Assembly (NCBI GenBank): GCA_964514595.1
Contig: CAZEQZ010000002.1
Coordinates: 29,812-93,811 of the forward strand
DNA: 64,000 nt
Direction: 5' to 3'
Source: an uncultured Candidatus Saccharibacteria bacterium
GTDB taxonomy: Bacteria; Patescibacteriota; Dojkabacteria; SC72
A program made the position numbers and the translations under genes. Position 1 is the first letter of the stretch, and the number at the start of each line of letters is the position of its first letter. Of this stretch, positions 5,753 to 53,502 are shown piece by piece. Under the pieces are notes generated by a model. That model was not told the origin of the DNA and ran no database searches. It saw only the letters and a list, made by a program, of their open reading frames with translations.

Positions 5753-6442
5753 TTGGAGACAGATCTAAGAGAACAACCAATAGAAGTACCAATAGCTAAT
5801 GTAGCTATTGATATAAACAATTACCGTATCAAAAGCTCCACAAATCAGGAATATAGGGAACAAAAGATGTGGGAGAATGCCAGATTACTACTCCTCGCAA
5901 ATAACAAAGAATTTGATTTTAGAGGATTTACAGGACCATTAGGTGAATCGCTTTTTAAAATCGCCTTGAAAGCCAATGATTACCCAGAAAATGAAATAGA
6001 GATCTCCACAGGAGATCAAGACCTATATGAACACATCGACTTTTTCATATCCTCCTACCCTATTGAAGTAACTAGTAATTTAGATTTCCATACTGCTAAG
6101 AAGAATACAGGAGAAGAAATATCCTTATTCCTACCAAAAATTGCTGGTCAACACAGTATAATAAATCGAAGTCCAGAAAATTATCACTACATAGGAAAAA
6201 CTATTAGAAATAACATATTCGAACCATCAAAGTTCTTGGAAGATATAATTAAAATTAATAGAGAGGTTCTAGAACTTTATAAACTATCTCAATATACAGG
6301 AGAAAGAGTATTTAAAAGAGATTCCATATTTAAGAAACACTTTAAAGTAGGAGATATTTCTGAAGAAAAAATCGAAGAGATAGAAGAATTCCTTAATATG
6401 CTGGAAGAAAAAACATTATTAGTCCCTAGCGCCCTTCAATAA
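5753..6442 (+). CDS. hypothetical protein
   Basis: 229-aa ORF. The ORF-track start at 5753 is a TTG. An internal ATG at 5867 (MWENARL...) is an alternative start. No family recognised. Confidence 0.35.
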   Translation: METDLREQPIEVPIANVAIDINNYRIKSSTNQEYREQKMWENARLLLLANNKEFDFRGFTGPLGESLFKIALKANDYPENEIEISTGDQDLYEHIDFFISSYPIEVTSNLDFHTAKKNTGEEISLFLPKIAGQHSIINRSPENYHYIGKTIRNNIFEPSKFLEDIIKINREVLELYKLSQYTGERVFKRDSIFKKHFKVGDISEEKIEEIEEFLNMLEEKTLLVPSALQ

Positions 6443-8110
6443 TTCCATTAATAACTCTCCCTGCTGCTGAGTAGCTAATCTGGGTATTAAATCCCTATCG
6501 GTATATATTGGCACAACTCTACTCTGAATATGTTTTCCATTATAGAAATAGTGTGAAAGTACAAGTCCTTGCCTTGTACCTATCCACATACTCTGATCAA
6601 AAAACAGATTACCCAATCCATAAAAAATAACACCATCACCGTATACCTCATATGTTTGAGGTTGATGTGCCTGAGTACCAACAACTATATCCGCCCCCAA
6701 ATCAACAGCCTTTCTAAACACTTCTTTCTGATCTGGATTACTAAGAGGTTTATAACAAATTGGATATATTACATCAGAAGCAGGATAACTGTAGCACTCT
6801 TGGAACTGAAATGTCACTATTACAACATCTGCCTCCTTCTTTGCCTTCTCAATATCACTCTTCATCTTACTCTCGGACCAAAAATTAGCACCAGACCTAC
6901 TCTCTCCTGCTAAAGCTAAACTTCTGTACACAGAATCATAGTAATTATAACCAAGGAAAGCTATGGTATTTCCCTTAACCTCTTCATACAGTATTTTACT
7001 TGCATCTTCATCATTTAAACCTCCACCAAAATATCTCATCCCTAAACTCGTGTACAACTCTATACTCTCTTTACTATACTGTGCTCCAAAATCATTGTTG
7101 TGATTTCCGGTTAATTCCACAATATCTACACCTGATTCTTTCAAAGCTTCAATATACTCTGGTCTAGAACAGAAACTCATTCCAGAGTATGACCTACAAC
7201 CAGGAACAAATGAAACTTCATTAGAAATATGTGTTAGATCTGCATTTGCAAGAAATTCCCCTATCTCCCTAGCAGGATATGCATTATCTCCAGAGTTATC
7301 AATCTTAATCGCTAATCCCCTAGACATTGCTACAACTCCTCCCATATTTATCTTAACCAATCTTTCTCTATTCCAATATCCATTATCTACATCTATATTC
7401 TTTGAAAGAACATTTAATATGAACTCATCTACACTCTTTTTTAACGTAGCATACAACCTTATGGAAATAGCTCCTTTTGAATCATCTAAATAGTATTTGT
7501 CATTAACCTCAAGGATCTTAACTTGATAGTCCAAATCCTTAAAATCTACTAACCCTATATTACTATCACTCTCCTTAAGCTTATTTACTAAATCCGGATA
7601 TGAATTCAATACCGAAGCATTAATACCGTATTCATCCTTCATGTACTCCCTATATACGGAATTAATAACAAAAACTGAATAACTACCCATTTCATCCTCA
7701 GTAACACTATCTAATAAAGAATACATATGCCCTACAGGAATTAGCTCTTTCCCAGACACCTCCCTTGCATCATCATTCTTTGTTCTAGAGAGCTCAATAT
7801 CAGCTCCCCCATCCTTTATTCTGAACCTCTTCTTCCCATTCAATTCCATTCCTTCCAAACTCTCTTGTATTGATTCCCTATACTCTTGAGAAATTGTATC
7901 ATCCAAAGAAACAGTATATGTATCATACCTAACGATGTTTTTTCTACTAAAAAGATACCCTATTGCTGATGTGAAATAGGTTCCTTCTGTTATCCATAGT
8001 ACGACAGGAAGAAGTATTAAAAAGAGTATAAAGGATAGTGGGAAAAGTGATTTCTTTTTAATATTTCTCTGCCTCCTAGTTGGTTGCGATATGTATATAT
8101 TCTGCCTCAT
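6419..8110 (-). CDS. capA: CapA/PgsA-family metallophosphatase-like protein (poly-gamma-glutamate capsule biosynthesis family), membrane-anchored
   Basis: N-terminal TM. PGA_cap-type motifs: LANADLTHISNEVSF, VDIVELTGNHNNDFG, VGTQAHQPQTYE and GLGNLFFDQ. Confidence 0.8.
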   Translation of the reverse strand: MRQNIYISQPTRRQRNIKKKSLFPLSFILFLILLPVVLWITEGTYFTSAIGYLFSRKNIVRYDTYTVSLDDTISQEYRESIQESLEGMELNGKKRFRIKDGGADIELSRTKNDDAREVSGKELIPVGHMYSLLDSVTEDEMGSYSVFVINSVYREYMKDEYGINASVLNSYPDLVNKLKESDSNIGLVDFKDLDYQVKILEVNDKYYLDDSKGAISIRLYATLKKSVDEFILNVLSKNIDVDNGYWNRERLVKINMGGVVAMSRGLAIKIDNSGDNAYPAREIGEFLANADLTHISNEVSFVPGCRSYSGMSFCSRPEYIEALKESGVDIVELTGNHNNDFGAQYSKESIELYTSLGMRYFGGGLNDEDASKILYEEVKGNTIAFLGYNYYDSVYRSLALAGESRSGANFWSESKMKSDIEKAKKEADVVIVTFQFQECYSYPASDVIYPICYKPLSNPDQKEVFRKAVDLGADIVVGTQAHQPQTYEVYGDGVIFYGLGNLFFDQSMWIGTRQGLVLSHYFYNGKHIQSRVVPIYTDRDLIPRLATQQQGELLMELLKGARD

Positions 8111-30107: not shown

Positions 30108-33100
30108 TTAAGATTTTTTCACCTTTATCCTCTCTGCAAGAATGTAGTTATCTTTTCTCACATCAATGAAAGTCCCCCTCTTGATATCAACTAACTCCCA
30201 ACCTTTCTCCGCAATATCAAGCTCATATTTACCTTTGTCTAATATAAATCTATATTTACCTTTACTGTTTGTTACTCTTTTAGCTATTACCTTATTGAAT
30301 TCCTTTTCTCGTATAGTTATAGATATGTTAGATAGTGGCTTACCCTTCTCATCTACAACTTTTCCATATTTACCTTTCTTATTAAAGAAAGAGTTTATTA
30401 AAATATATAACGGGATTATATACAGAAGAAGAAATATTAGATTATTACTATTCCTGTGTGTGTAGTATGTGTACGAGGATATGGTCACTCCCACAATAAA
30501 TATGAAGACATTGAGTATTGATAGTGCTTTAACTAATATATTCTTGATTCTGTGAAATACCATTTGACCACCTAGAATCTCTTTAGGATCTATAGGAACA
30601 GCAATTTGTATATCCGTATCTTCTGACGATATATCTAGGCTACCAGTATATACATTCTGTAATGGATAATCATGTGGACCCTTTACATATATACTTGGGT
30701 ATTCATATCCAGACTTAGATACTTTTAACAAATACTTTCCCTTTCCTAAGCTAGCAGAGAATCTCCCATTGATATCTGTAACAGCTGTATCCACCAACCT
30801 ATCCTTAGTATTAAATACTCTAACTAATGCCATATGGACAGGTTCTTTAGTATTAGAATCATATACAAACCCGTAATTAACCCTCTTCTTTCTAAAGCCT
30901 AAGGAACTCAAAATTAACATCATAAATTGCGATACCATATATCCCAACTGTGTTAACCCACCAAAGAGAGCTGTAGCTCCTACCGTTACAGTTACTACAT
31001 TTGCTGTTGTGGAAATAGTCCGAAGCTCCCTCTCTTCAAGATTGGTCACAACATCTGTATTTATCAATATGCCTAAAGTATTATCCTTTATAAAGTTTGT
31101 AATTTTCTGAATAGTTGATTGCTTTGGAACAGCCTTCTCTGATTTCGACTCCTCTTTTTTCTCCTCCACGACAGGTTTATCTACTTTAGTATCTTTCGGT
31201 TCTTCATAGTAGAATCCTAGTCCTCCTGTACCTCTTAACCCATCAGCAACCCAATAATTTATTCCACCTATTACTACCTTAGACACCGTAACTGATGACT
31301 CCCCTACATTCTTTTTACTCGGAAACTCCCCTGTAAATTGTACTGCTCCCGAACACTTCTCCTTTACTTCCTCTAACTGAGAGGCACCTGGGCAAAGCAG
31401 AAACGCATTCGTATCATCTGCATTAACATACATTGTGAACGGATTAGAGACACCATGATTCTCTTGAAGCTTTATTACTGTCTTCCTCTCTTCTGGAGCA
31501 CTTAGTATTATAGCGTCCTGCCAATCCCTATCCTGATTAAATAAAACAGGAATATCCGCTACTAGGAGATCCCCTTTCTTTATCCTAACATTCCTTTCCC
31601 CGAATTGAGCATTATTACGTACTGTTAAATCTATATTCTCTTGAGTAGCCAGGGTAGCACGAAGTGTACTGTCAATATTTCTCAATATAGCCCCTGTACC
31701 GATGAAGATTGGATCACTCCAACCAGTTTGTACTAGAGATTTATTTCTAGCCTTAACTGAAAACCCATACTGAACTCCTGTCTCCAATCCATTTACTATT
31801 ACTCCATTAGCAGATCCAAAATTAGAGAAAGTTCCCCATTTTTCCTGAACAGTTAATGTCCCTAATTCAAAATCTAAATACCTACCACTATTGTTTTCTC
31901 TAATTAATAACTCTGTATCTGCTGGATTATCTAAAGTATTAATATATACCCTAGCACTATCACTTGACACAGCATTCACCCTAACCATGGATGGGCTCTG
32001 AGCGAAGGTATATATTGATTGATTCGTTGACCAGGTTGTAGCAACATTCTTTTTATTTAAACTTCTTACTTTAAATTCGTACTCAGTATTAGGAAGCAAT
32101 CCATCAATATCGATACTGGAAGAAAATGGAGTAATGGAGGAGGAAGTCATTAATATTTTCAGATCATTATTGTAATATCTATTACTCTTATTCTCCACTA
32201 TCTGTAGGCTATCCCTACTACTTCCAGATATTGCTAATCTAACAGAGGATGCTCCTGTTGCAGTTACTGAGGATATCCTAGAAGGTTCTGAGTGCGTAGA
32301 GAAAAGAAATGTATTTGAATAATCACTTTCAGATATATTACTGTACACTTTCACCTTCCTAGCATATTCTGTATTAGAGGAGAGATTTCCCTCTATACAC
32401 TGGTTCATACTATTAACAGAGCAGGTGATCAACAGATTGTTATTGGAATCATAGATCTTATATCCTACCTTAGAAGCATTGCTATCCGTTACTCTCCAAG
32501 TAAATGAACTGGCTGTTGTTGTGAGAGCTGAGAGTAGTGTCGGAGGATATAGTTTAGTTGCAACTGTAACTGATTGAGAAAATTCACTTTCTATATCCGC
32601 TTCATTTCTAGATTTAACTTTGAATCTGTATTCCGTACCTACTTCCAACCCAACAACTTCCTTTCCATTCTCCGACCCGAACTGAGTATATGTTCCCCAT
32701 ACCTCCTCATCTACCAAAGCTCCTGTAGAGATATCTACATACTTGTTCGTACTTTCTTCCATAATTGCATATTGTGTACCTACAGGGTTATTATCCTGAC
32801 TTAAAGCAACAGTTATACTGTTTATAGTTCGTGCAATTAATACTGGTACATTTGGTATATCTGATTTAGTATATGTCCCTATATACTCACTAAAGGTAGT
32901 TTCTATACCATTATAGTTTCTAGATTTCACCCTGAAGAAATAAAGGGTATTAGGTTCTAAATTAGTTACTGCTGTACTTTCTGATTGAGTCCATACGGAA
33001 ATTCCCTCATTACAATCTAATTCCTCACATTCAAAAAATACGCCTGAATTACCGTCATTTATATTATTTACCCCCTCTGCTGTTAAAGAGACTGAAGAAG

Positions 33101-35534
33101 ATGAAAGAGGAGACAAAGATATGGATGGAACTTCTGCCAAAGTATATATTGTTATACTCTCAGAATATTCGGTTTCAACACCATCTCCATTTCTGCCCTT
33201 CACTCTGAAAGTATATGCGGTATTAAAATCCAAATTAGTTACCTCATCACTACTGGTAGATATCCATTCATTAATACCTGTGTCACATCCTGTATTCTCA
33301 CAATCAAAATATATTTCCGACCCATTTATCTGACCGAGGGCAGACAGATTTATCGTTGAAACAGTTTTCTCTCCTCCTTCTAGTATTGTTGGTGGCGAGA
33401 GTAGTGTATACACATATGCAAGTTCAGAAGGGGCACTTTCTCCTGAGGAATTGTATGCAGTAATTTTTCTAGAATATTGAGTATTCTCATCAAGACCAGT
33501 CTCATCACAATATGTTAAGTCCTCTCCAAGGCAGTATTTAATTAAATTGTCTTCTTCATCATACAGAGCAAATCCTTCTTCATTGTTAGCATTATCTGAG
33601 AAGTGCCATCTGATGACAGAGGTTGACAAAGCTTCAGGTGTCCCCATTGTTGGGACTTCAGGAGCCGTAGAATAAGTTAGAGATACACCTTCTAATACAG
33701 GAGTGTCTTGTCCACTATTAGTATCAAAAGATATTTTGTAATAAAACTCAGAAGTTTGTAGATCTAATTCTTCCAGAATGATCTCTACATTTTCACCAAG
33801 GATTAGCTCATCATCACCATCTTCTATTCCAGAGGAATCAAACCACATTAAAGAATCCGTACTAAATTGAATAGAAGCTGAAGTCCCCACAGGTTTAGAA
33901 GATAGAGTATAAGAGAAGGACTGTATAAAAACATTATTTTCTTCCGAAATCAAATCAGACGATTGCAAAGTCATTGAGTTGGCGTATGCAGGGCTCACTT
34001 GTGAACTTGCGACAGGGGTGGAATTACCATTAAAAGAAGTCGTGTATTCTATACGAACCCTACCATCACCTCCGGCAACTCCTCGTGTAGATGGAACACC
34101 AGCAGATGCAGTAGTAGAAGACTCACTTAAACTTATTTGCCCTCCTACTATCTTAATAGCACCACCTGCGCCGGTTCCTCCCCCAGAACCCTTGGATTCA
34201 GGTTCCGCAGTAATGTTTCCTCCATTACTTTTTATTGAGCCCAACACATTTATATCAGTCCCCAAAATAAATATTATTCCTCCTCCACGACTCCCACTCG
34301 TACCATCATAATAAGATCCCGATAACCCTTGACCTGCACCACCTCCACCTCCACCTCCTCCGAAATTAAGCCTAGACAAATCAGCTTCTCCCGCGCTTTT
34401 ACCACCACCCCCTCCTCCAGCCGAGTATCTCTTATCTCCGTAATGCAAAGCCCCCGCTCCCCCGGCTCCACTGGCCGAAGATGTTCCCCCATCCCCAGAG
34501 GTCACCCTACTATATCCCCCCACTCCTGGGGTTCCATAACCACCGCCCCCTCCTCCTCCACCTAAACCATCACAGTCATTTGTTGTACATTTTGTATTTG
34601 TAGAACCACCACCCCCTCCTCCAACTGATCCGTAATCATTACTTCCAGCTCCTCCTGCCCTGTTAGATCCTCCGCCACCACCACCACTCCAACTTCCTGC
34701 ATACCCTACTGCACCAGTAGCTCCTCCCTTCCCATCGTTTCCAGATACTGGGAAATATCCTTCTCCAGGAGTAGTATTACATGCTCCTACAGCACACTTA
34801 TTTCCTCCTCTATATCCCAAAGCAGAAACATCTATATTTCCGTTTACATTAACTACCCCAGAAGCTTCAAACGAGAAAACTCCTCCTTTTGTACCATCCC
34901 ATGCATCAGGATACCAATTTACCCCAGCATTAACTGTTACATCACTATACTGGGGAATTCTCTGAACCATTATTTTTTGTGTAGTACCATTGTATCCATT
35001 TGTCAGATTCCTATCTAAAGAGAGAATTTCGCCTACTACATTCTCTACGTATGCAGTTTCATACTGTCCGACATTTGAATGATCTGCTTGTGTACCTTGT
35101 AAGTTTATTATCAATATTTCATCCCCTATCGACAACCCCGTAGCTACAGAAGATAGGGTTATGCTATCACTCCCAGCCACCACATTTTCTGTTACAGAGA
35201 AATTAACTGCATCTCCATCCACTCTCCCAACACAGCTCCCAGTATTAATGTTTGTATTTACAGAAACAGTACAAATTCCATCATTCCCTGTTCCAAAACT
35301 AACTTTACTAACTTTAACAGTTCCCTCCCCAATATCATAATTAGATGAATTGACCTGATCTATTAAATCTAATGTGCTGAAATCCTCTACTACGGTATGT
35401 GCAACACTTTGTATGGTTCTTGCAAGATATAAATAAACAGCTATAGGTAAAAATGTGATTACTGTAAATACTGAAAGAATAACTATAAACCTCCTCCAAT
35501 TAAAATTCCCTAAGAGTGTTTTCTTTTTCTTCAT
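30108..35534 (-). CDS. giant (1808 aa) cell-surface protein: signal anchor, Gly-rich beta region, about 8 FN3-like repeats, then TM helices interleaved with two CarboxypepD_reg-like domains
   Basis: N-terminal TM. Poly-Gly runs at aa ~230–560 (GGGGGGS, GLGGGGGGGGYGTPG). Repeated ~90-aa FN3-like units (e.g. ...YFDCENTGCDTGINEWISTSSDEVTNLDFNTAYTFRVKGRNGDGVETEYSESITIYTLAEVP). Hydrophobic helices at aa ~1480–1520 and ~1660–1720. Two transthyretin-like segments (GFVYDSNTKEPVHMALVRVF...; GKVVDEKGKPLSNISITIRE...). Confidence 0.7.
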   Translation of the reverse strand: MKKKKTLLGNFNWRRFIVILSVFTVITFLPIAVYLYLARTIQSVAHTVVEDFSTLDLIDQVNSSNYDIGEGTVKVSKVSFGTGNDGICTVSVNTNINTGSCVGRVDGDAVNFSVTENVVAGSDSITLSSVATGLSIGDEILIINLQGTQADHSNVGQYETAYVENVVGEILSLDRNLTNGYNGTTQKIMVQRIPQYSDVTVNAGVNWYPDAWDGTKGGVFSFEASGVVNVNGNIDVSALGYRGGNKCAVGACNTTPGEGYFPVSGNDGKGGATGAVGYAGSWSGGGGGGSNRAGGAGSNDYGSVGGGGGGSTNTKCTTNDCDGLGGGGGGGGYGTPGVGGYSRVTSGDGGTSSASGAGGAGALHYGDKRYSAGGGGGGKSAGEADLSRLNFGGGGGGGGAGQGLSGSYYDGTSGSRGGGIIFILGTDINVLGSIKSNGGNITAEPESKGSGGGTGAGGAIKIVGGQISLSESSTTASAGVPSTRGVAGGDGRVRIEYTTSFNGNSTPVASSQVSPAYANSMTLQSSDLISEENNVFIQSFSYTLSSKPVGTSASIQFSTDSLMWFDSSGIEDGDDELILGENVEIILEELDLQTSEFYYKISFDTNSGQDTPVLEGVSLTYSTAPEVPTMGTPEALSTSVIRWHFSDNANNEEGFALYDEEDNLIKYCLGEDLTYCDETGLDENTQYSRKITAYNSSGESAPSELAYVYTLLSPPTILEGGEKTVSTINLSALGQINGSEIYFDCENTGCDTGINEWISTSSDEVTNLDFNTAYTFRVKGRNGDGVETEYSESITIYTLAEVPSISLSPLSSSSVSLTAEGVNNINDGNSGVFFECEELDCNEGISVWTQSESTAVTNLEPNTLYFFRVKSRNYNGIETTFSEYIGTYTKSDIPNVPVLIARTINSITVALSQDNNPVGTQYAIMEESTNKYVDISTGALVDEEVWGTYTQFGSENGKEVVGLEVGTEYRFKVKSRNEADIESEFSQSVTVATKLYPPTLLSALTTTASSFTWRVTDSNASKVGYKIYDSNNNLLITCSVNSMNQCIEGNLSSNTEYARKVKVYSNISESDYSNTFLFSTHSEPSRISSVTATGASSVRLAISGSSRDSLQIVENKSNRYYNNDLKILMTSSSITPFSSSIDIDGLLPNTEYEFKVRSLNKKNVATTWSTNQSIYTFAQSPSMVRVNAVSSDSARVYINTLDNPADTELLIRENNSGRYLDFELGTLTVQEKWGTFSNFGSANGVIVNGLETGVQYGFSVKARNKSLVQTGWSDPIFIGTGAILRNIDSTLRATLATQENIDLTVRNNAQFGERNVRIKKGDLLVADIPVLFNQDRDWQDAIILSAPEERKTVIKLQENHGVSNPFTMYVNADDTNAFLLCPGASQLEEVKEKCSGAVQFTGEFPSKKNVGESSVTVSKVVIGGINYWVADGLRGTGGLGFYYEEPKDTKVDKPVVEEKKEESKSEKAVPKQSTIQKITNFIKDNTLGILINTDVVTNLEERELRTISTTANVVTVTVGATALFGGLTQLGYMVSQFMMLILSSLGFRKKRVNYGFVYDSNTKEPVHMALVRVFNTKDRLVDTAVTDINGRFSASLGKGKYLLKVSKSGYEYPSIYVKGPHDYPLQNVYTGSLDISSEDTDIQIAVPIDPKEILGGQMVFHRIKNILVKALSILNVFIFIVGVTISSYTYYTHRNSNNLIFLLLYIIPLYILINSFFNKKGKYGKVVDEKGKPLSNISITIREKEFNKVIAKRVTNSKGKYRFILDKGKYELDIAEKGWELVDIKRGTFIDVRKDNYILAERIKVKKS

Positions 35535-36316: not shown

Positions 36317-36393
36317 TGGTGGGCGACACAGGATTCGAACCTGTGACCCTCTCGGTGTAAACGAGATGCTCTGACCAGCTGAGCTAGTCGCCC
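36317..36393 (-). tRNA. tRNA-Val (anticodon UAC), CCA encoded
   Basis: GGGCGAC-TA-GCTC-AGCTGGTCA-GAGC-A-TCTCG-TTTACAC-CGAGA-GGGTC-ACAGG-TTCGAAT-CCTGT-GTCGCCC-A-CCA. Perfect cloverleaf. Confidence 0.9.
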
Positions 36394-36400
36394 ATATATA

Positions 36401-36487
36401 TGCCGAGGACAGGAGTTGAACCTGCACGAGAGTATAAGTCTCACTACCACCTCAAGGTAGCGTGTCTGCCAATTCCACCACCTCGGC
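36401..36487 (-). tRNA. tRNA-Leu (anticodon GAG), type II with a long variable arm
   Basis: GCCGAGG ... CTACC-TTGAGGT-GGTAG, a long variable arm, T arm GCAGG-TTCAACT-CCTGT, acceptor 3' strand CCTCGGC, discriminator A. Confidence 0.85.
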
Positions 36488-36539
36488 ACATTATACAGTG
36501 ATTATTCTAACAAATTAAGCCTTTTTATCCAATACTTAA

Positions 36540-37397
36540 CTATTCAAACTTCATTGAATCCAAGACCCTTTGAGCTATCTGTTGAGATTCTACAACAGAA
36601 GAATCAATATAATACAGAATATTAAAAATATATTTATCCATAATCACAATATAACCCTTTGAAGAGCCTCCTATCCCTACAATAGTATACTCTAAGACAT
36701 TTTTTCCCCATTTGATAGAATCTTTATGGGATTCTGTACCATACTCATTATCTGCAGGATAAAACACCGAGAAAATATCTATATACTTTTTTTTCACTTG
36801 CTCGTAATTTTCGTTCCCATCGTTTTCAAATATATAAATGTCAAATACATGTTCTTTGACACAACCCTGCCCACATCCGAAATTGTCTGGTATTCGAGAA
36901 GGAAAAAATTCTATTCGGACATGATGTTCTAAATCAGAATGAACCTTTCCATACCAAGATATATCAAAAGCATCCGGCGCATAATCTGCATGCTTCACAT
37001 CCCAATATGAATATATATTTTGAGCACTATCTATCCCTGGCATGCTCAGCATCTTATATGTTGGAATTTCAACACCAAAACCATACTGAGGCAAAGAGAA
37101 AAGTCCCCATCCACCATTATCTAAACGAGCTTCATTCGTACACACAGTGCACTCCTCTGGATCACTATCCTCAACATTATTATCCCCCGTTACGTTCTCT
37201 TGCTTATTATCTCTATCACCAATTACATCCTCTAAAAGATTAATCCCATTATCTTTCAAAACAAAATATGTTAATCCTAAGAGAGAAAAAGCCAACAAAA
37301 TTATCAACGCATATACCCCTACCTTTTGTGGTTTCTTAGTCTCTGGCATCTCCTCGGAAACAGGAACCACGATATCATTTTGTAGTGATTCTTCCAT
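36540..37397 (-). CDS. membrane-anchored/secreted hypothetical protein with CxxC pairs
   Basis: The ORF track extends to 37595, but the first 66 codons look non-coding. The start was placed at the ATG at 37397 (MEESLQ...), which precedes a TM anchor (VGVYALIILLAFSLLGLTYFVL). ECTVCTNE and CGQGC motifs are present. Confidence 0.4.
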   Translation of the reverse strand: MEESLQNDIVVPVSEEMPETKKPQKVGVYALIILLAFSLLGLTYFVLKDNGINLLEDVIGDRDNKQENVTGDNNVEDSDPEECTVCTNEARLDNGGWGLFSLPQYGFGVEIPTYKMLSMPGIDSAQNIYSYWDVKHADYAPDAFDISWYGKVHSDLEHHVRIEFFPSRIPDNFGCGQGCVKEHVFDIYIFENDGNENYEQVKKKYIDIFSVFYPADNEYGTESHKDSIKWGKNVLEYTIVGIGGSSKGYIVIMDKYIFNILYYIDSSVVESQQIAQRVLDSMKFE

Positions 37398-37454
37398 ATG
37401 TGAAAAAAGATAAAATAGATATACATATATTAATACACTTTCATTATACTTTGT

Positions 37455-37630
37455 AAATAGACCCTTAGGGTCTGACACTCCTCCGTCCCCCAAATATCTT
37501 TGGCCTGTACTATCTTTTTGCAAAATAAGAAGGTTCTTTTGGATGTTGCAACAACAAAAATATGTACAAAAACAAGACGATTTCCTCTTGTACAAAGGTT
37601 TTTACGGGGACAGGCCGGGGTCTGACCCTA
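37455..37630. repeat. GC-rich palindromic repeat copies (GGGTCTGACCC family) in the divergent promoter region upstream of eno
   Basis: GACCCTTAGGGTCTGACAC at about 37459–37478 and GGGGACAGGCCGGGGTCTGACCC at 37605–37627. The perfect palindrome GGGTC-T-GACCC stands out against the AT-rich surroundings. The same 23-mer family occurs inside tsaD. Confidence 0.5.
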
Positions 37631-37697
37631 TGTATAACCCAATTGCAAAAATATCCCTTTTGATGCAAAATGTACATATAACATTAGGCAATACAAC

Positions 37698-38969
37698 ATG
37701 AAGATCAAAAACATACAAGCCAGAGAAATATTAGATTCCAGAGGTATACCAACAATATCTACTGAGATAGAGCTATGGAGCGGGGAAACAGGAGTCGCAG
37801 AAGTACCGTCCGGAGCATCTACAGGAAAAACAGAAGTTTTAGAAATGAGAGATGAAGACAACGAAAGACACAATGGAAAAGGTGTACTTAAAGCAGTAGA
37901 GATAATTAATACCACTATTAGAGATCTTGTAGTGAACAAAGAATTCTCTAGCCAAAGAGAGTTTGATGAACTATTAATAAATGAAGATGCAACTGAATTA
38001 AAAACCAAATTAGGAGGAAACACAATACTCTCCTGCTCTATGGCATTTGCCAGAGCAGTATCTAACGAATTTGGTCTAAATCTGTACGAATATATTGGGA
38101 TGATATATTGGGACAAGGAGTATTCTACAAGTAACTTCAAAATGCCTACCCCCCTTATACTTGTAATGGAAGGTGCAAAACATGGAAACTGGGCTACTGA
38201 CATACAAGAGTATATGTTAGCTCCTAAGATAGAAAGATTTGGATCTTTTAGTGAAGCATTCAGAGTTACAACAGAGGTATTTCATAATATTCATGACATT
38301 CTTGATACCAAGGGATATTCAGTTGGGCTTGGACTGGAGGGTGCATTCGCACCAAAAGAGATAGGAAGTAACAAGGAAGCTTTTGAAATAATAATGGAGG
38401 GGTTGAAGAAATCAGGTTTTAATCCAGGACAGGATTTTGACATTGCCTTAGATCTAGCAAGTTCCGAATTCTATGATGAGCAAAAAGATATATATGTATT
38501 AAAAAGCGAGAACAAAGAATTGAGCAAGGATGAATGGATATCACTACAAAGAGAATGGTATAAAGAATTTCCAGTATCTTCCATAGAGGACCCTCTACAT
38601 CAGGATGATTGGAATGGATGGAGTGAATTTACAAGAGAGTTTGGAGAAAAATATCAGATTGTTGGAGATGACCTACTAACTACGAATGTTAAAAGGATAC
38701 AGAGAGCTATTGAAGAGAAGGCCGTCAATAGTGTACTCATAAAATTAAACCAAATAGGAACAGTATCAGAGACGCTGGACGCTATACGATTGACGGTAGA
38801 CAATGGGATGAGTGCTGTTATTTCACACAGGAGTGGAGAAACAAATGACGACTTTATTGCTGATTTAGTTGTAGCTACACCTGCAAATCAGTGTAAATTT
38901 GGAGGTCCTAGTAGAGGTGAGAGGCTGGCAAAATATAACAGATTATTAGATATTGAACAAAATATATAA
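37698..38969 (+). CDS. eno: enolase (phosphopyruvate hydratase)
   Basis: SRGIPTISTEIELWSGETGVAEVPSGASTGKTEVLEMRD and SHRSGETNDDFIADLVVA. Enolase signature along the full length. Confidence 0.95.
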   Translation: MKIKNIQAREILDSRGIPTISTEIELWSGETGVAEVPSGASTGKTEVLEMRDEDNERHNGKGVLKAVEIINTTIRDLVVNKEFSSQREFDELLINEDATELKTKLGGNTILSCSMAFARAVSNEFGLNLYEYIGMIYWDKEYSTSNFKMPTPLILVMEGAKHGNWATDIQEYMLAPKIERFGSFSEAFRVTTEVFHNIHDILDTKGYSVGLGLEGAFAPKEIGSNKEAFEIIMEGLKKSGFNPGQDFDIALDLASSEFYDEQKDIYVLKSENKELSKDEWISLQREWYKEFPVSSIEDPLHQDDWNGWSEFTREFGEKYQIVGDDLLTTNVKRIQRAIEEKAVNSVLIKLNQIGTVSETLDAIRLTVDNGMSAVISHRSGETNDDFIADLVVATPANQCKFGGPSRGERLAKYNRLLDIEQNI

Positions 38970-39047
38970 CAAAGGGAATAGGCGAGCGTGGAATAGATAA
39001 AAATCTTTTAGACTTCTGAAGTCTAATTATTCCACACTCACCGTTAG

Positions 39048-39121
39048 CGCTCCTGAAAGGATTCGAACCTCTATACAGTCATTCAAAGGCTGACTGGCTT
39101 TTCCATTTAAGCTACAGGAGC
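39048..39121 (-). tRNA. tRNA with an atypical 9-nt anticodon loop (GCCUUUGAA); identity unresolved (Gln-UUG or Lys-UUU), possible pseudo-tRNA
   Basis: GCTCCTG-TA-GCTT-AAATGGAA-AAGC-C-AGTCA-GCCTTTGAA-TGACT-GTAT-AGAGG-TTCGAAT-CCTTT-CAGGAGC-G. All other arms are canonical, including the T-loop TTCGAAT. Discriminator is G73. No CCA. Confidence 0.55.
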
Positions 39122-39167
39122 ATAAAATACCAGAATTATATACTATAAGCTTCTAAAATTACAGTTC

Positions 39168-40271
39168 CTAAAGAGACAATCTTGGCTCCCTATCTATTTC
39201 TTTAATTTCATTTTTGTCTGTAATATATTCTTTCCTCTGTATTTTGTAATATGCAACTATCCCAACCATTCCTGCATTATCTCCTCTGTATTCTTTTTTA
39301 GGATATATATATTCCAAACCGTATGATCTAGCAATATTGCCTATAAATCTGACCATTTCCTCACTGTTAAATACCCCACCTCCCACAAATATAGCTTTTA
39401 TTTCAGGATACTGTTCTATAGCCATATCTAATTTTATTTTAATAGACTCATTCACAGCGTCCAAAAATCCTCTACAGAAATCATATATCCATTCTTTCTC
39501 TGGCTTCCCTTCCTCTCTTAGTTCCTTAACCTTATACAGTGCTGCTGTTTTCAAACCCGAATAGCTAAAGTTAAGATCTTTGGAATTCTTCATTGGTATA
39601 GGGAAGACAATTTCCCCTGATTTTCCTTTCTTTGCAAATTCGGTAATTACAGGACCACCTGGATATCCCAAATTCAACATCCTCGCAACCTTATCAAATG
39701 CCTCGCCCACTGCATCATCCAATGTCTCCCCAAGTTTCTTGTACTCCCCAGTCTGTTGAACATGTACCAGCTCAGTGTGCTTACCAGATACCAAAAGACC
39801 AATGGCCGGAAATAGGGACAGACCCTGGTACGACCCCTGTGGTTTCAAAATATTATCGCTATGCAATTTCTTCTGGTCCAGGGACAGACCAGGGTCAGAC
39901 CCCAGAAAACCTGAGAGTAAGTGCCCTTCCATATGGTTTATAGGTACAAATGGAAGACCATTTTCAATTGCCAAATCCTTAGCAAAGTTCAAACCTATCT
40001 CCAGATCAATCGCTAACCCTGGACCATACGTACATGCTATATAATCAACATCCTCGATTTTAACCTTTGCTCTCTTAAGTGCCTTCTCATATACGATTGG
40101 TATGTTTTTTTCATGCTCTCTCCTGGCTATATCTGGCACTACTCCACCCCACTGAGCATGTATTTCCACCTGAGAGGATACCTCAGAAGAAAGGATCTTA
40201 TTCCCTCTTAAGACTGCTACAGATGTATCATCACAACTTGTATCTATTGCTAATATTAGTAGGTTATTCAT
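39168..40271 (-). CDS. tsaD: tRNA N6-adenosine threonylcarbamoyltransferase TsaD (Kae1/Gcp family), carrying a ~25-aa in-frame insertion
   Basis: ILAIDTSCDDTSVAVL, HMEGHLLSGF and LLVSGKHTELVHV. Between the HMEGH region and LLVSG lies an extra segment GSDPGLSLDQKKLHSDNILKPQGSYQGLSLFP. It is encoded by GC-rich repeat DNA. Confidence 0.9.
   Translation of the reverse strand: MNNLLILAIDTSCDDTSVAVLRGNKILSSEVSSQVEIHAQWGGVVPDIARREHEKNIPIVYEKALKRAKVKIEDVDYIACTYGPGLAIDLEIGLNFAKDLAIENGLPFVPINHMEGHLLSGFLGSDPGLSLDQKKLHSDNILKPQGSYQGLSLFPAIGLLVSGKHTELVHVQQTGEYKKLGETLDDAVGEAFDKVARMLNLGYPGGPVITEFAKKGKSGEIVFPIPMKNSKDLNFSYSGLKTAALYKVKELREEGKPEKEWIYDFCRGFLDAVNESIKIKLDMAIEQYPEIKAIFVGGGVFNSEEMVRFIGNIARSYGLEYIYPKKEYRGDNAGMVGIVAYYKIQRKEYITDKNEIKEIDREPRLSL
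39815..39903. repeat. three copies of the GGGACAGACC/GGGTCAGACCC palindromic repeat inside the tsaD coding region
   Basis: GGGACAGACCCTGG (39815), GGGACAGACCAGGG (39881) and GGGTCAGACCCCAG (39893). The 23-mer GGGACAGACCAGGGTCAGACCCC matches the copy upstream of eno. It is translated as PGLSL/QGLSL in tsaD. Confidence 0.5.
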
Positions 40272-41343
40272 ATATCTCTATGCTCCTCTCATTAAGTGAT
40301 ACATACTTAATATTTACCTTGTATATGGGAATATTCATATTGTCACACAGTGCAGATATCTCTTGGTAGAATTTATCTGCCCACTCTATCAATACAATGT
40401 TTCCACTCTCTAAATGTTGGATTAATCCTGAGGTCTCTAATTCATGATCCTCTAATTTCCATGTATCCATATGTGCGAGGATCTGTCCCTTGTTATATGT
40501 ATATTCATTAATTATGGTATATGTCGGTGAATTTACGATTTCTTTAACTCCAAGTTGTTCAGCTACTCCTTTTGCAAATTGTGTTTTTCCTGCTCCTAGT
40601 TCTCCACTTAGTGCTACTACAACCGGGATATCTTCTGACAGATATTTTTTAGCAAATTCTTTTGCTAAATCAATAGTTTCTTGGGTTGTTTTTGTATTCC
40701 TTTCTTCCACCTTTTTATTTTTAATTAAGGCATTTTCAAATTGAAGCTTACCCTGCCTTAGGATACTTAATTGGTTCATTGTGGTGTCTAATACTGTAGA
40801 GGGTTGATTTTTAGGTAGTTGGCCCGCATCTAGGAAAAGATCTATCAGTTTAAAACTTTTCTTAGGAAGATCTTTCATTAACTGATCTATGTTGTATGGA
40901 GGTGATTTGTATGACACATTAGCTGATGTTGCTGTTATCGGTTTCCCGAATTGTTTAATTAATTCTAATGTAAATTCATAATCTGGATATCTTACTCCCA
41001 CAGCTCCCTGTATGGATACTACTGGAGGAACTAGATTACCCTTACTCATTGATATTACAGTTATTGGTCCAGGGAGATAGTTTTTGTATATGTTGTCTGC
41101 CATTTCATTAATCTCTACATACTCCTCTGCCATCTTCCTGTCTGCTACAGCTATGGATATGGGTTTGGATCCTCTGAGTGTTTTATATTCCATTATCTTT
41201 TCCAATGCTTTTGGATTAGTTGCATCTCCTCCTAGTCCATAGCAAGTTTCTGTCGGGTATACAATTAATCCACCGTTTTTTAATGTTTCAACGGCTTTTT
41301 TTATAGCAAGATCTTTATCTTTTTTAATATCAATTCTGTTCAT
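40264..41343 (-). CDS. tsaC-tsaE: fused L-threonylcarbamoyladenylate synthase (TsaC/Sua5/YrdC domain) and TsaE (YjeE P-loop ATPase)
   Basis: N-terminal YrdC-type fold (VYPTETCYGLGGDATNPKALEKI...). The C-terminal ~140 aa carry the TsaE Walker A ALSGELGAGKTQFAKGVAEQLGV, then SPTYTIINEY and IEWADKF. Confidence 0.8.
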   Translation of the reverse strand: MNRIDIKKDKDLAIKKAVETLKNGGLIVYPTETCYGLGGDATNPKALEKIMEYKTLRGSKPISIAVADRKMAEEYVEINEMADNIYKNYLPGPITVISMSKGNLVPPVVSIQGAVGVRYPDYEFTLELIKQFGKPITATSANVSYKSPPYNIDQLMKDLPKKSFKLIDLFLDAGQLPKNQPSTVLDTTMNQLSILRQGKLQFENALIKNKKVEERNTKTTQETIDLAKEFAKKYLSEDIPVVVALSGELGAGKTQFAKGVAEQLGVKEIVNSPTYTIINEYTYNKGQILAHMDTWKLEDHELETSGLIQHLESGNIVLIEWADKFYQEISALCDNMNIPIYKVNIKYVSLNERSIEIYE

Positions 41344-52267: not shown

Positions 52268-53502
52268 TACTCTTCTGCCTTGATATTATATACGGAAGGA
52301 AGAAGAACCTCTTCCTTTAGAATCTTCTGCGTCCAATCTCTTTTGGCCAGTATTCCTTTAATTAAACTTTCTAATTCCTTAGAGTTTATCTCTTTAGAAG
52401 AAAATACTGTTATCTCATGGGGAGAGAAAAATGGGTCTCCATTTCTGGTCATTACAAGAACTTCAACTTTACAATCAAAGTGCTCCGCTATTTCTCTTGC
52501 CATTTCATCAACTATTACTCCATAAACCTTACCAACATGATATACAGGATTCTTTCCCCAGGCAGCTTCCATTGAATATTTCCTCATCATAGGAATTATT
52601 CCTCTCCTATTGTTTCCCCTACCTACACATCCTTCTTCTCCAAAATCTGTGGCTGACCCTCCAGCTACAAGATAAGCTTTCTTGGCTGTGGTAATACCTT
52701 TCGCAAGTTGATCCTGGGTATTAATATGCAGTTCATATTCTAATTTCATATCTTTAAACCTTTTTTGGATATGGTCCTTTATTACCTGAACGATGTATTT
52801 TTTCTTCTCTTTATACTCTAAAGAATCCTTAATATCCTGCGCGAAGAAAGGAATACACATCGTTATACTATACTTATTATCTCTCCTAATAGTCATAACC
52901 TTTATGTCCTGCCCAATAAAAGAATATTTAGGATTCTTTTCTTCATCATAAAACAATCCTTCCAACTCTAGTGTCAGGCTCTCTGCAAAGGTTAAAGGCC
53001 AACAACCAACTACAGCAGATGTGTCATTAGCAAATATGTTTTTGTACTCTGGAAGATCCTCTACTGACTTAGGATTAAACCATCTGGGATTGCGAGAATA
53101 TTGCTTTGTTTCATTCATTATTATTAACCAATTTTCAGTATCAAATCTAGGCATAACTTTGTTAAGATAGGTTTTAACTGCGTCCTCAATGATTGACTGT
53201 ATGGGAATTTTTTTCCCATCAAAGGATCCACTCATCCTCCCGTTAACAAGAACCCTTACGGGCTCTGTGAATTTACCTTTTCCCCAATCAAATTCAGATA
53301 ACCCTCCCATAATACAAACTTTATCTACGTTATGATGTAGTACATACCCGAAATTATCCAAACAGTATTTTGAATAATCTATAGATATTCTTTCCGCTAA
53401 ACCGTCCGCTAACGTATCTGGATGTCCCCAACCCTTCCTCTCAACAATTTCTATATCATTGTCATCTGGGAATATATGCTTTGTTGTTTGATGTATATTC
53501 AT
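52267..53502 (-). CDS. S-adenosylmethionine synthetase, archaeal type (MAT; PF01941 family)
   Basis: IEIVERKGWGHPDTLADGLAE, ILHHN-like VLHHNVDKV, ANDTSAVVG, GQDIKVM, LHINTQD and GGSATDFGEEGCVGRGNNRRGIIPMMRKYSMEAAWGKNPVYHVGKVY are collinear with archaeal MAT (e.g. [20 protein letters not shown] ... MGDDGSVGRGNRVNGLITP...SGKNPVNHVGKIY). Confidence 0.85.
   Translation of the reverse strand: MNIHQTTKHIFPDDNDIEIVERKGWGHPDTLADGLAERISIDYSKYCLDNFGYVLHHNVDKVCIMGGLSEFDWGKGKFTEPVRVLVNGRMSGSFDGKKIPIQSIIEDAVKTYLNKVMPRFDTENWLIIMNETKQYSRNPRWFNPKSVEDLPEYKNIFANDTSAVVGCWPLTFAESLTLELEGLFYDEEKNPKYSFIGQDIKVMTIRRDNKYSITMCIPFFAQDIKDSLEYKEKKKYIVQVIKDHIQKRFKDMKLEYELHINTQDQLAKGITTAKKAYLVAGGSATDFGEEGCVGRGNNRRGIIPMMRKYSMEAAWGKNPVYHVGKVYGVIVDEMAREIAEHFDCKVEVLVMTRNGDPFFSPHEITVFSSKEINSKELESLIKGILAKRDWTQKILKEEVLLPSVYNIKAEE

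Follow-up and report, generated by a model that had tools for sequence, protein, structure and literature searches.

GC-rich palindromes upstream of eno and inside tsaD in a Dojkabacteria genome: probable REP doublets of a REP–RAYT system

Introduction

What are the short GC-rich palindromes that lie in front of eno in a low-GC bacterial genome, and why do near-copies of them stand inside tsaD? The question is raised by positions 37455–37630 of a 64,000-nucleotide stretch of DNA (the window, to which all coordinates given without a locus number refer), which is assigned by protein matches to candidate division WS6/Dojkabacteria. The original prediction, made from the sequence of the window, described a dispersed family of palindromes at this place and offered three readings of it: REP-like elements, binding sites of a palindrome-recognizing regulator or the termini of MITEs. 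An effect on the expression of eno was also considered.

REPs (repetitive extragenic palindromes) are defined as extragenic, and published REPINs occur in tens to hundreds of copies. In the systems that have been described, the gene of the REP-associated tyrosine transposase (RAYT) is flanked by inverted REPs, and the REPINs are hairpin-forming doublets with conserved ends and a variable spacer that persist for long periods by vertical inheritance (PMC3116915; PMC5581495; bioRxiv 10.1101/2021.07.10.451892).

Materials and methods

E1 and E2, the two elements described here, were compared across the loci of 47 TsaD relatives taken from metagenomes. Loci and proteins outside the window are cited by L and P numbers, respectively. 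The motif GGGTCNGACCCNNGNCTGTCCC was scanned against one genome per species, the genome of the window not being among them, and four low-GC loci were returned. The features discussed are collected in Table 1.

Table 1. Positions of the repeat units, the doublets and associated features. Positions refer to the window unless a locus is named.
Feature	Positions	Strand	Evidence or remarks
Intergenic region between the hypothetical gene (36540–37397, minus) and eno (37698–38969)	37398–37697		
E1, REPIN-like REP doublet, 163 bp: two inverted units and a 115-nt AT-rich spacer	37467–37629	.	Hairpin fold, match to RAYT flanks, orthologues
E1 left REP unit, GGGTCTGACACTCCTCCGTCCCC, partly decayed	37468–37490	+	18/23 versus GGGTCTGACCCCGGTCTGTCCCC
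E1 right REP unit, minus strand GGGTCAGACCCCGGCCTGTCCCC; contains GGGTCTGACCC (37618–37628) and GGGACAGGCC (37607–37616)	37606–37628	-	21/23 versus GGGTCTGACCCCGGTCTGTCCCC
GGGTCTGACAC, one-mismatch copy of GGGTCTGACCC	37468–37478		Within 37455–37630
GGGACAGGCC, single copy	37607–37616		Within 37455–37630
GGGTCTGACCC, perfect	37618–37628		Within 37455–37630
eno promoter-like site TTGCAA-N17-CAAAAT, between E1 and the eno start codon	37643–37671	+	Read by eye
tsaD, host gene of E2	39168–40271	-	TIGR03723, 335 bits, E 4e-100
E2, REP doublet, 90 bp (30 codons), in frame in tsaD	39814–39903	-	Encodes GSDPGLSLDQKKLHSDNILKPQGSYQGLSL
E2 REP unit b, coding strand GGGTCGTACCAGGGTCTGTCCCT, partly decayed	39814–39836	-	Encodes GSYQGLSL; 18/23 versus GGGTCTGACCCCGGTCTGTCCCC
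E2 REP unit a, coding strand GGGTCTGACCCTGGTCTGTCCCT	39880–39902	-	Encodes GSDPGLSL; 21/23 versus GGGTCTGACCCCGGTCTGTCCCC
GGGACAGACCC	39815		Inside tsaD
GGGACAGACCA+GGGTCAGACCC	39881–39902		Inside tsaD
REP at tgt 3′ end, L149	6722–6749 (L149)		..KGLTPVCPH-stop
REP at tgt 3′ end, L093	7128–7152 (L093)		..KGLTPVCP-stop
REP at tgt 3′ end, L034	6583–6607 (L034)		..KGLAQVCP-stop
RAYT-flank REP variant of L152			AGGTCTGTCCTAGATCTGACCC
RAYT-flank REP variant of L153			GGGTCAGACCC-GGGTCAGACC

Results

The repeated unit and its copies in the window

On both strands of the whole window, GGGTCTGACCC is matched six times with at most one mismatch, against 0.39 expected; none of 100 shuffles reached six, and a chance origin of the motif was thereby ruled out. 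All six matches fall in the interval upstream of eno or in tsaD. The motif is present and non-random, as had been stated, but the two or three perfect copies reported in front of eno reduce to one perfect GGGTCTGACCC, one copy with a single mismatch and one GGGACAGGCC. The GC content of the units (70–78%, against 34.4% for the window) is indeed about twice that of their surroundings. Near-identical copies are found in tsaD at the expected places (Table 1), and the genes were correctly named: eno is recognized by TIGR01060 (500 bits), tsaD by TIGR03723, and the divergent hypothetical gene starts at 37397.

The word 'dispersed' suits the family less well. In approximately 72 kb around the finding the skeleton GGGNCNGNCCC (at most one mismatch) occurs only at 37468–40489, apart from a likely chance match at 52649; a third locus does exist elsewhere, namely the flanks of the RAYT gene described below.

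Two other candidates for membership were set aside. Of the remaining GC-rich islands of the window, one, at 34 kb, is a coding stretch rich in Gly, and the other is a tRNA. The coding stretch (34000–34700), with 48% GC against 34% for the genome, does not belong to the REP family and lies in the ORF 30108–35534 (minus strand), which encodes a surface-type protein of 1808 residues with Gly/Pro-rich repeats and matches to CarboxypepD_reg and, faintly, fn3. The other candidate, GGATCTGTCCC in tsaC-tsaE (40479–40489), contributes codons to a short variable loop and probably arose by chance. The same position is occupied by GGATCTGTCCC in the window (KGQI) and by GGGACAGACCC in L097 (9783–9793; KGQT); both are probably chance occurrences or a very old REP half-site.

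The full repeated unit is longer than first described. It is a 23-nucleotide quasi-palindrome, GGGTCWGACCC-N-GGYCTGTCCC, consisting of two adjacent 11-mers, and the units of the window are arranged as two doublets, E1 and E2. The reference REP used here, GGGTCTGACCCCGGTCTGTCCCC, is the 23-mer that flanks RAYT; the window units match it at 21, 21, 18 and 18 of 23 positions, and a search with up to three mismatches recovers two of them (the right unit of E1 and unit a of E2) where 0.00 are expected. The bases 5′ of the units are mostly ..TA (TTA, ATA or CTA before GGGTC); a single GTA gives GTAGGG (L121), and a strict GTAG was found nowhere. For a single unit a stem of 7 bp with two mismatches is predicted, with −2.6 to −3.2 kcal/mol as DNA and a z-score of about 0 against shuffles. 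When folded as RNA, both doublets form stable hairpins (z-scores of −3.3 for E1 and −3.2 for E2); single units, folded as DNA, are not stable as hairpins by themselves.

The RAYT gene and its flanking REPs

The GGGTCNGACCCNNGNCTGTCCC scan led to L093, in which two inverted units surround an ORF of 143 residues, and to L034, in which units surround an ORF of 145 residues. Both ORFs match Pfam Y1_Tnp at 40–46 bits (cut-off 23) and NCBIfam REP_Tyr_transpos (REP-associated tyrosine transposase) at 78 bits, just below the curated cut-off of 80. A homologue search yielded P0129, a protein of 143 residues that is 80% identical to the RAYT of L093, is named RayT by JGI and carries a precomputed Pfam match to Y1_Tnp (PF01797). 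P0129 and the TsaD of the window have identical contig statistics (6 contigs, longest 760,270 bp) and the same four sources, and P0129 was found in the same samples as the window (ERZ27252300 and SRR108726xx runs). Because of these shared samples and contig statistics, rather than a contig read from end to end, this RAYT was attributed to the genome of the window. No transposase appears in the Pfam listings for the approximately 72 kb around the finding, and tblastn with RAYT returned nothing in the window or in the loci of the TsaD relatives.

The RAYT gene is positioned between rny and tgt. In L149 it occupies 6284–6715 and lies between perfect inverted copies of GGGTCTGACCCCGGTCTGTCCCC at 6222–6244 and 6727–6749. 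The gene order HU-rny-RAYT-tgt-queA is shared by L149/150/151, L152 and L153, and L034, as far as it was read, has the core rny-RAYT-tgt; the fixed locus speaks for vertical inheritance of RAYT. The right-hand REP overlaps the 3′ end of tgt and codes for the last residues of Tgt (Table 1). On translation by hand, the 23-mer of the RAYT flanks contains a stop codon in just one of the six reading frames.

A profile built from 24 RAYT homologues had 4ER8 (E. coli TnpArep) as its sole match in the PDB (E = 4.6e-11); phmmer with a single RAYT gave no match in the PDB. The HUH motif N59-H60-F61-H62 (NHFH) and Y121 are invariant in the 24 homologues. The RAYT of 143 residues is thus an HUH/Tyr single-strand DNA transposase.

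A search for a REP-associated tyrosine transposase had been proposed together with the prediction, and it is decisive among the three original readings. With a RAYT gene attributed to the same genome and set between perfect inverted copies of this 23-mer, it is the REP-like elements that are supported. With the RAYT flanks found, serine/tyrosine recombinase crossover sites, integron attC sites and DNA uptake sequences were dropped as candidates, as was the view of E1 and E2 as ends of an invertible segment.

The regulator reading has to be judged against the same evidence. It would make the GGGTC-N-GACCC palindromes of 11 bp the operators of a dimeric regulator controlling the tsaCE-tsaD-eno neighbourhood, and the perfect symmetry of the 11-mer, the clustering of the copies within 3 kb (37.4–40.5 kb) and the spacing (adjacent 11-mers start 11 nt apart, and the E2 units 66 nt, or 6 × 11, apart) would all suit operators. 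Yet the identical sequence borders a transposase gene elsewhere, at a locus unrelated to this one, and RAYT genes in other phyla as well, and operators do not require an insertion of 30 codons in tsaD. In front of eno, the distance from the unit to the −35-like site is anything from 2 to 13 nt between species, so that the helical phase is not kept, and the promoter-like site exists without units. No candidate regulator gene was identified, no specific search having been made. Binding sites for a regulator are superfluous for explaining the data, and we give this reading very little credence.

The doublet upstream of eno

The two units of E1 face inwards, as do those at the RAYT flanks of L149, and the same hairpin arrangement of inverted units is present in L097, L121 and, as a separate doublet, L081. 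The predicted hairpin has −53.9 kcal/mol as RNA and −27.3 kcal/mol as DNA (z-score of −3.8 for DNA; none of 200 shuffles was as stable). An E1-type element lies upstream of eno at five loci, namely the window, L005 (where it is cut by the contig end), L097, L100 and L121. It is absent despite the same gene order from L098/099, L102/138, L119 and L145 and from the loci L104, L105, L108, L113, L134 and L125, in which tRNA-Leu and eno are neighbours. In the TsaD tree the carriers belong to two non-sister clades.

The site TTGCAA-N17-CAAAAT scores 8/12, under the threshold of the consensus scan; we infer that it is the promoter of eno. It is kept in relatives with E1 (L097, L100 and L121) and in relatives without it (L098/L099). 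E1 is always upstream of the −35-like hexamer, its end being 2–13 nt away, with the distance varying between species. An effect of the repeats on eno expression, as had been suggested, is not borne out by this arrangement, in which the promoter-like site sits between E1 and eno and is present too where E1 is missing.

In the region 36320–37397 of the window, on the far side of E1, a hypothetical gene of 285 residues (no family match) lies between E1 and a tRNA-Leu/tRNA pair; in L097 (12498–12719) and L100 (3426–3634) tRNA-Leu directly adjoins E1. This difference indicates that the far flank of E1 was rearranged while E1 stayed with eno.

E1 is more similar between loci than the four-fold degenerate sites of eno. 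The identity between the window and L097 is 77% for E1 (78% for the spacer alone) against 60% for the four-fold sites; between the window and L100 it is 65% (63% for the spacer alone) against 41%. By these figures the spacer is more conserved than synonymous sites, a feature not reported for REPIN spacers in the literature, and it may have an added function. A small protein gene was considered and rejected, the ORF of 52 residues at 37543–37701 being interrupted by a stop codon in L097.

One could therefore regard E1 as a conserved functional non-coding element tied to eno, for instance a small RNA with a defined fold or, at the DNA level, a cruciform or an insulator separating divergent promoters, with REP-like ends because it was built from a REP. 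The conservation above four-fold sites, the stable hairpin (z-scores from −3.3 to −3.8) and the constant position in five loci and two non-sister clades, next to eno on one side while the other neighbour changes, would fit such an element. Against a functional RNA, Rfam 15 at gathering thresholds gives only tRNAs in the window, and at E ≤ 10 the interval 37380–37720 gives only two matches at chance level. Covariation, evaluated for four sequences in both orientations, is weak: the term is about 0 with most pairs invariant, and with n = 4 it is uninformative. E1 is located upstream of the eno promoter-like site and outside the promoters of its neighbours, so that no transcript is evident, and the element is lacking in many relatives that share both gene order and promoter-like site. 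Since the ends of E1 are near-identical to those at the RAYT flanks, this reading, too, has to start from a REP. We therefore consider it improbable that E1 is primarily an element of this kind, although less so than the operators discussed above.

In its outline E1 is also MITE-like, with terminal inverted repeats of 23–24 nt (17/24 match), an AT-rich core, a length of 163 bp and presence or absence among relatives. As classical MITEs, E1 and E2 would have arisen by deletion from a DDE-type insertion sequence and would carry terminal inverted repeats as well as target-site duplications. No direct repeats flanking either element could be read from the sequence, no DDE transposase is found in the Pfam listings of the window and its surroundings, and the sole gene found to carry such termini encodes a RAYT-type Y1 HUH transposase. 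The units of E2, in addition, are directly oriented. The designation 'MITE termini' holds loosely, in that REP doublets (REPINs) are non-autonomous; with neither a target-site duplication nor a DDE-type partner seen, descent from a DDE-type element is as improbable as control by a regulator.

The doublet inside tsaD

The 30 residues encoded by E2 are located between the HMEGH helix and the LLVSGKHT strand of TsaD. Site, frame and spacing of E2 (unit starts 66 nt apart) agree in the window, L004, L144 and L145; the spacers and the encoded peptides differ among these four. Both units best match GGGTCTGACCCCGGTCTGTCCCC on the same strand, i.e. they are direct and not inverted, yet they pair with each other in a hairpin predicted at −42.8 kcal/mol as RNA.

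The nearest TsaD relatives (P0002–5 and P0007; 83–88% identical) are without E2 and keep just GGGACAGACCCC (GTDP) at this place, and the remaining TsaD proteins of WS6 have an ordinary loop encoded by AT-rich sequence (LNSKGNGLVEG...). In a neighbour-joining tree of TsaD calculated with the loop columns removed, all carriers of E2 and two loci bearing remnants fall in one clade, which indicates a single old insertion with vertical inheritance and, in the L005/L097 branch, partial deletion. In these closest relatives the 12-mer GGGACAGACCCC is present twice in tsaD (L005, 4050–4061 and 4362–4373; L097, 10370 and 10682). One copy is at the site of E2 and the other is near residue 228, where eight residues of all other WS6 TsaD proteins are missing; judged by sequence, the copies look like REP remnants at two deletion sites.

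In the AlphaFold2 model of TsaD the pLDDT is 80–97 overall and below 50 for residues 124–151, and the insert is predicted to be a flexible loop. The reading frame is kept in four lineages with indels in multiples of three, which argues for plain translation of E2; translational bypass ('byps') was dropped on these grounds and after the RAYT flanks had been found.

The gene preceding tsaD is a fusion of tsaC (Sua5/YrdC) and tsaE (40264–41343, minus strand; TIGR00057 and TIGR00150); it shares 8 nt with the beginning of tsaD. WS6 relatives keep both the fused gene and the neighbourhood, which consists of GGDEF, thioredoxin, tsaCE, tsaD and eno.

REPs and RAYTs in related and unrelated genomes

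The REPs at the RAYT flanks vary between lineages (Table 1). The E1 units of L121 (GGGTCAGATCTAGATCTGACCCC) carry the GATCTAGATC-type variant, as do the RAYT flanks of L152; the E1 REPs thus track the RAYT-flank REP of their lineage. Beyond WS6, the 22-nt REP core adjoins RAYT genes in three genomes of unrelated lineages (L033, 4042–4887; L046, 4447–4934; L079, 915–1672).

Several observations were made in these and other genomes. The Pseudomonadota MAG JAZKIN01 (L033) contains the motif in at least 45 stretches, which often form inverted pairs abutting each other directly; its RAYT is approximately 25–29% identical to that of WS6. The MAG CAYVNA01, labelled Saccharibacteria, has a RAYT in the WS6-type context rny-RAYT-tgt (L034, 6080–6607) and a separate REP doublet of approximately 170 bp downstream of a DnaB-like gene (L081, 6669–6841), the spacer of which is unrelated to that of E1. 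Candidatus Zapsychrus exili (Omnitrophota, 37% GC; L010, 3384–4901) has four perfect GGGTCWGACCC 11-mers in a stretch of 1.5 kb that is rich in repeats and apparently non-coding. Their sequence suggests the same type of REP in another low-GC uncultivated lineage.

For the genome of the window, three doublets (six units) were seen in the approximately 93 kb read of a genome of roughly 760 kb. In the scan of one genome per species there were one or two motif stretches per low-GC genome (L093; L034 and L081), which suggests that the REP populations are very small.

Discussion

The GC-rich units are best explained as the REP sequences of a REP–RAYT system in this Dojkabacteria (WS6) genome, with E1 and E2 as REPIN-type doublets, i.e. 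old copies moved by RAYT and not operators. We put the probability of this explanation at about 85%. By analogy with the biochemistry of E. coli TnpA-REP and with the REPIN literature, RAYT would bind the folded REP or doublet in single-stranded DNA, cut beside the doublet and move or copy it to a new single-stranded target. In the ancestor of one WS6 clade, one such event may have put a doublet into a loop on the surface of TsaD. As the insertion is 90 nt long and open, it would have been translated ever since as a disordered loop of 30 residues. Another doublet, E1, sits just upstream of the eno promoter-like −35 site. Both doublets would now be old, vertically inherited and partly decayed, rather than operators of a regulator.

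Some features do not sit easily with a REP family. The copy number is very low, with three doublets in what was read and none elsewhere in the approximately 72 kb around E1 and E2. The extragenic definition is satisfied by E1; E2 lies inside tsaD and one of the RAYT-flank REPs inside tgt. This coding location is a departure from the definition of REPs in place, not in sequence or partner. The REPIN architecture of conserved ends and a spacer that is variable between lineages is seen in E2, whereas the spacer of E1 is not variable. Further weak points are the weak hairpins of single units, the direct orientation of the E2 units and the NCBIfam score of 78 against 80 bits.

The closest known systems are the REP/REPIN–RAYT systems, i.e. 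the REP/BIME sequences of E. coli with TnpA-REP/YafM and the REPINs of P. fluorescens SBW25 (Nunvar 2010; Bertels & Rainey 2011, PMC3116915; Bertels et al. 2017, PMC5581495). Shared with them are a RAYT with HUH and Tyr motifs between inverted REPs, doublets elsewhere with conserved ends and a long hairpin, a conserved chromosomal locus for RAYT and REP variants that track the lineage; with 66 nt, the units of E2 are spaced much as those of the GI REPIN of SBW25 (71 bp). The present system differs in its host, a candidate-phyla-radiation genome of approximately 0.76 Mb with 34% GC, and in that a handful of copies were seen instead of tens to hundreds. It differs also in that an essential gene contains one doublet in frame, presumably translated, that the 3′ end of tgt is made up by one of the RAYT-flank REPs, that the spacer of E1 is long (115 nt) and conserved, and that single units form weak hairpins. 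The bases before the units are mostly ..TA, and not GTAG, the tetranucleotide that serves as cleavage site 5′ of the REPs of E. coli.

In its behaviour E2 resembles the Rickettsia palindromic elements (RPEs; Ogata et al. 2000; PMC10969869). RPEs are palindromic repeats of approximately 100–150 bp in a reduced genome that are inserted in frame in unrelated housekeeping genes, yield additional translated segments at the protein surface that the fold tolerates and are inherited vertically at orthologous sites (PMC10969869). E2 is likewise palindromic, in frame in a housekeeping gene and vertically inherited, and it would be the source of an extra surface segment. RPEs have no known cognate transposase, whereas here a RAYT partner was identified, and RPE families, with dozens of copies, are similar over their whole length; the similarity of E1 and E2 is confined to their 23-nt ends. 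A third comparison is with the PATEs derived from IS200/IS605, which are also non-autonomous, depend on a Y1 HUH transposase recognizing hairpins in single-stranded DNA and lack a target-site duplication. The ends of IS200/IS605 elements, however, are two different subterminal hairpins, and their transposase gene itself moves and is present in several copies. In the present system, identical inverted repeats flank a gene that keeps to one conserved locus, and the profile of the protein matches TnpA-REP alone among solved structures.

A stronger form of the REP–RAYT explanation would be that the doublets are not passive relics but are retained under selection at the nucleotide level, with a domesticated RAYT maintaining a tiny REPIN population from which copies were co-opted as the translated loop of TsaD, an essential t6A enzyme, the C-terminus of Tgt and the conserved hairpin by the eno promoter. 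In that case the REP skeleton would have been kept GC-rich against strong AT pressure throughout the history of a WS6 clade while peptide and spacer drifted. We regard this extension as unlikely, though clearly less so than the rival explanations weighed above.

RAYT genes of this group are already named as such by automatic annotation; a literature search found no paper on REPs or RAYTs in WS6 or candidate-phyla-radiation bacteria. Most work on REP–RAYT systems concerns large proteobacterial genomes, with REPINs by the hundred between their genes. Here, the system belongs to a candidate-phyla-radiation bacterium with a very small, gene-dense genome, with RAYT at a fixed locus and few copies of the REP. 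The unusual aspect is the overlap with coding sequence, above all one REP pair of 30 codons in frame within the essential gene tsaD, which has been inherited by a whole clade. The finding bears on how REP elements persist where almost no non-coding DNA exists. It is also a warning that the odd GC-rich loop of 30 residues in these TsaD proteins is repeat-derived and not a functional motif. If the reading of selection at the nucleotide level were true, Dojkabacteria would be a minimal natural model of the REPIN–RAYT association and of the exaptation of REPs into proteins.
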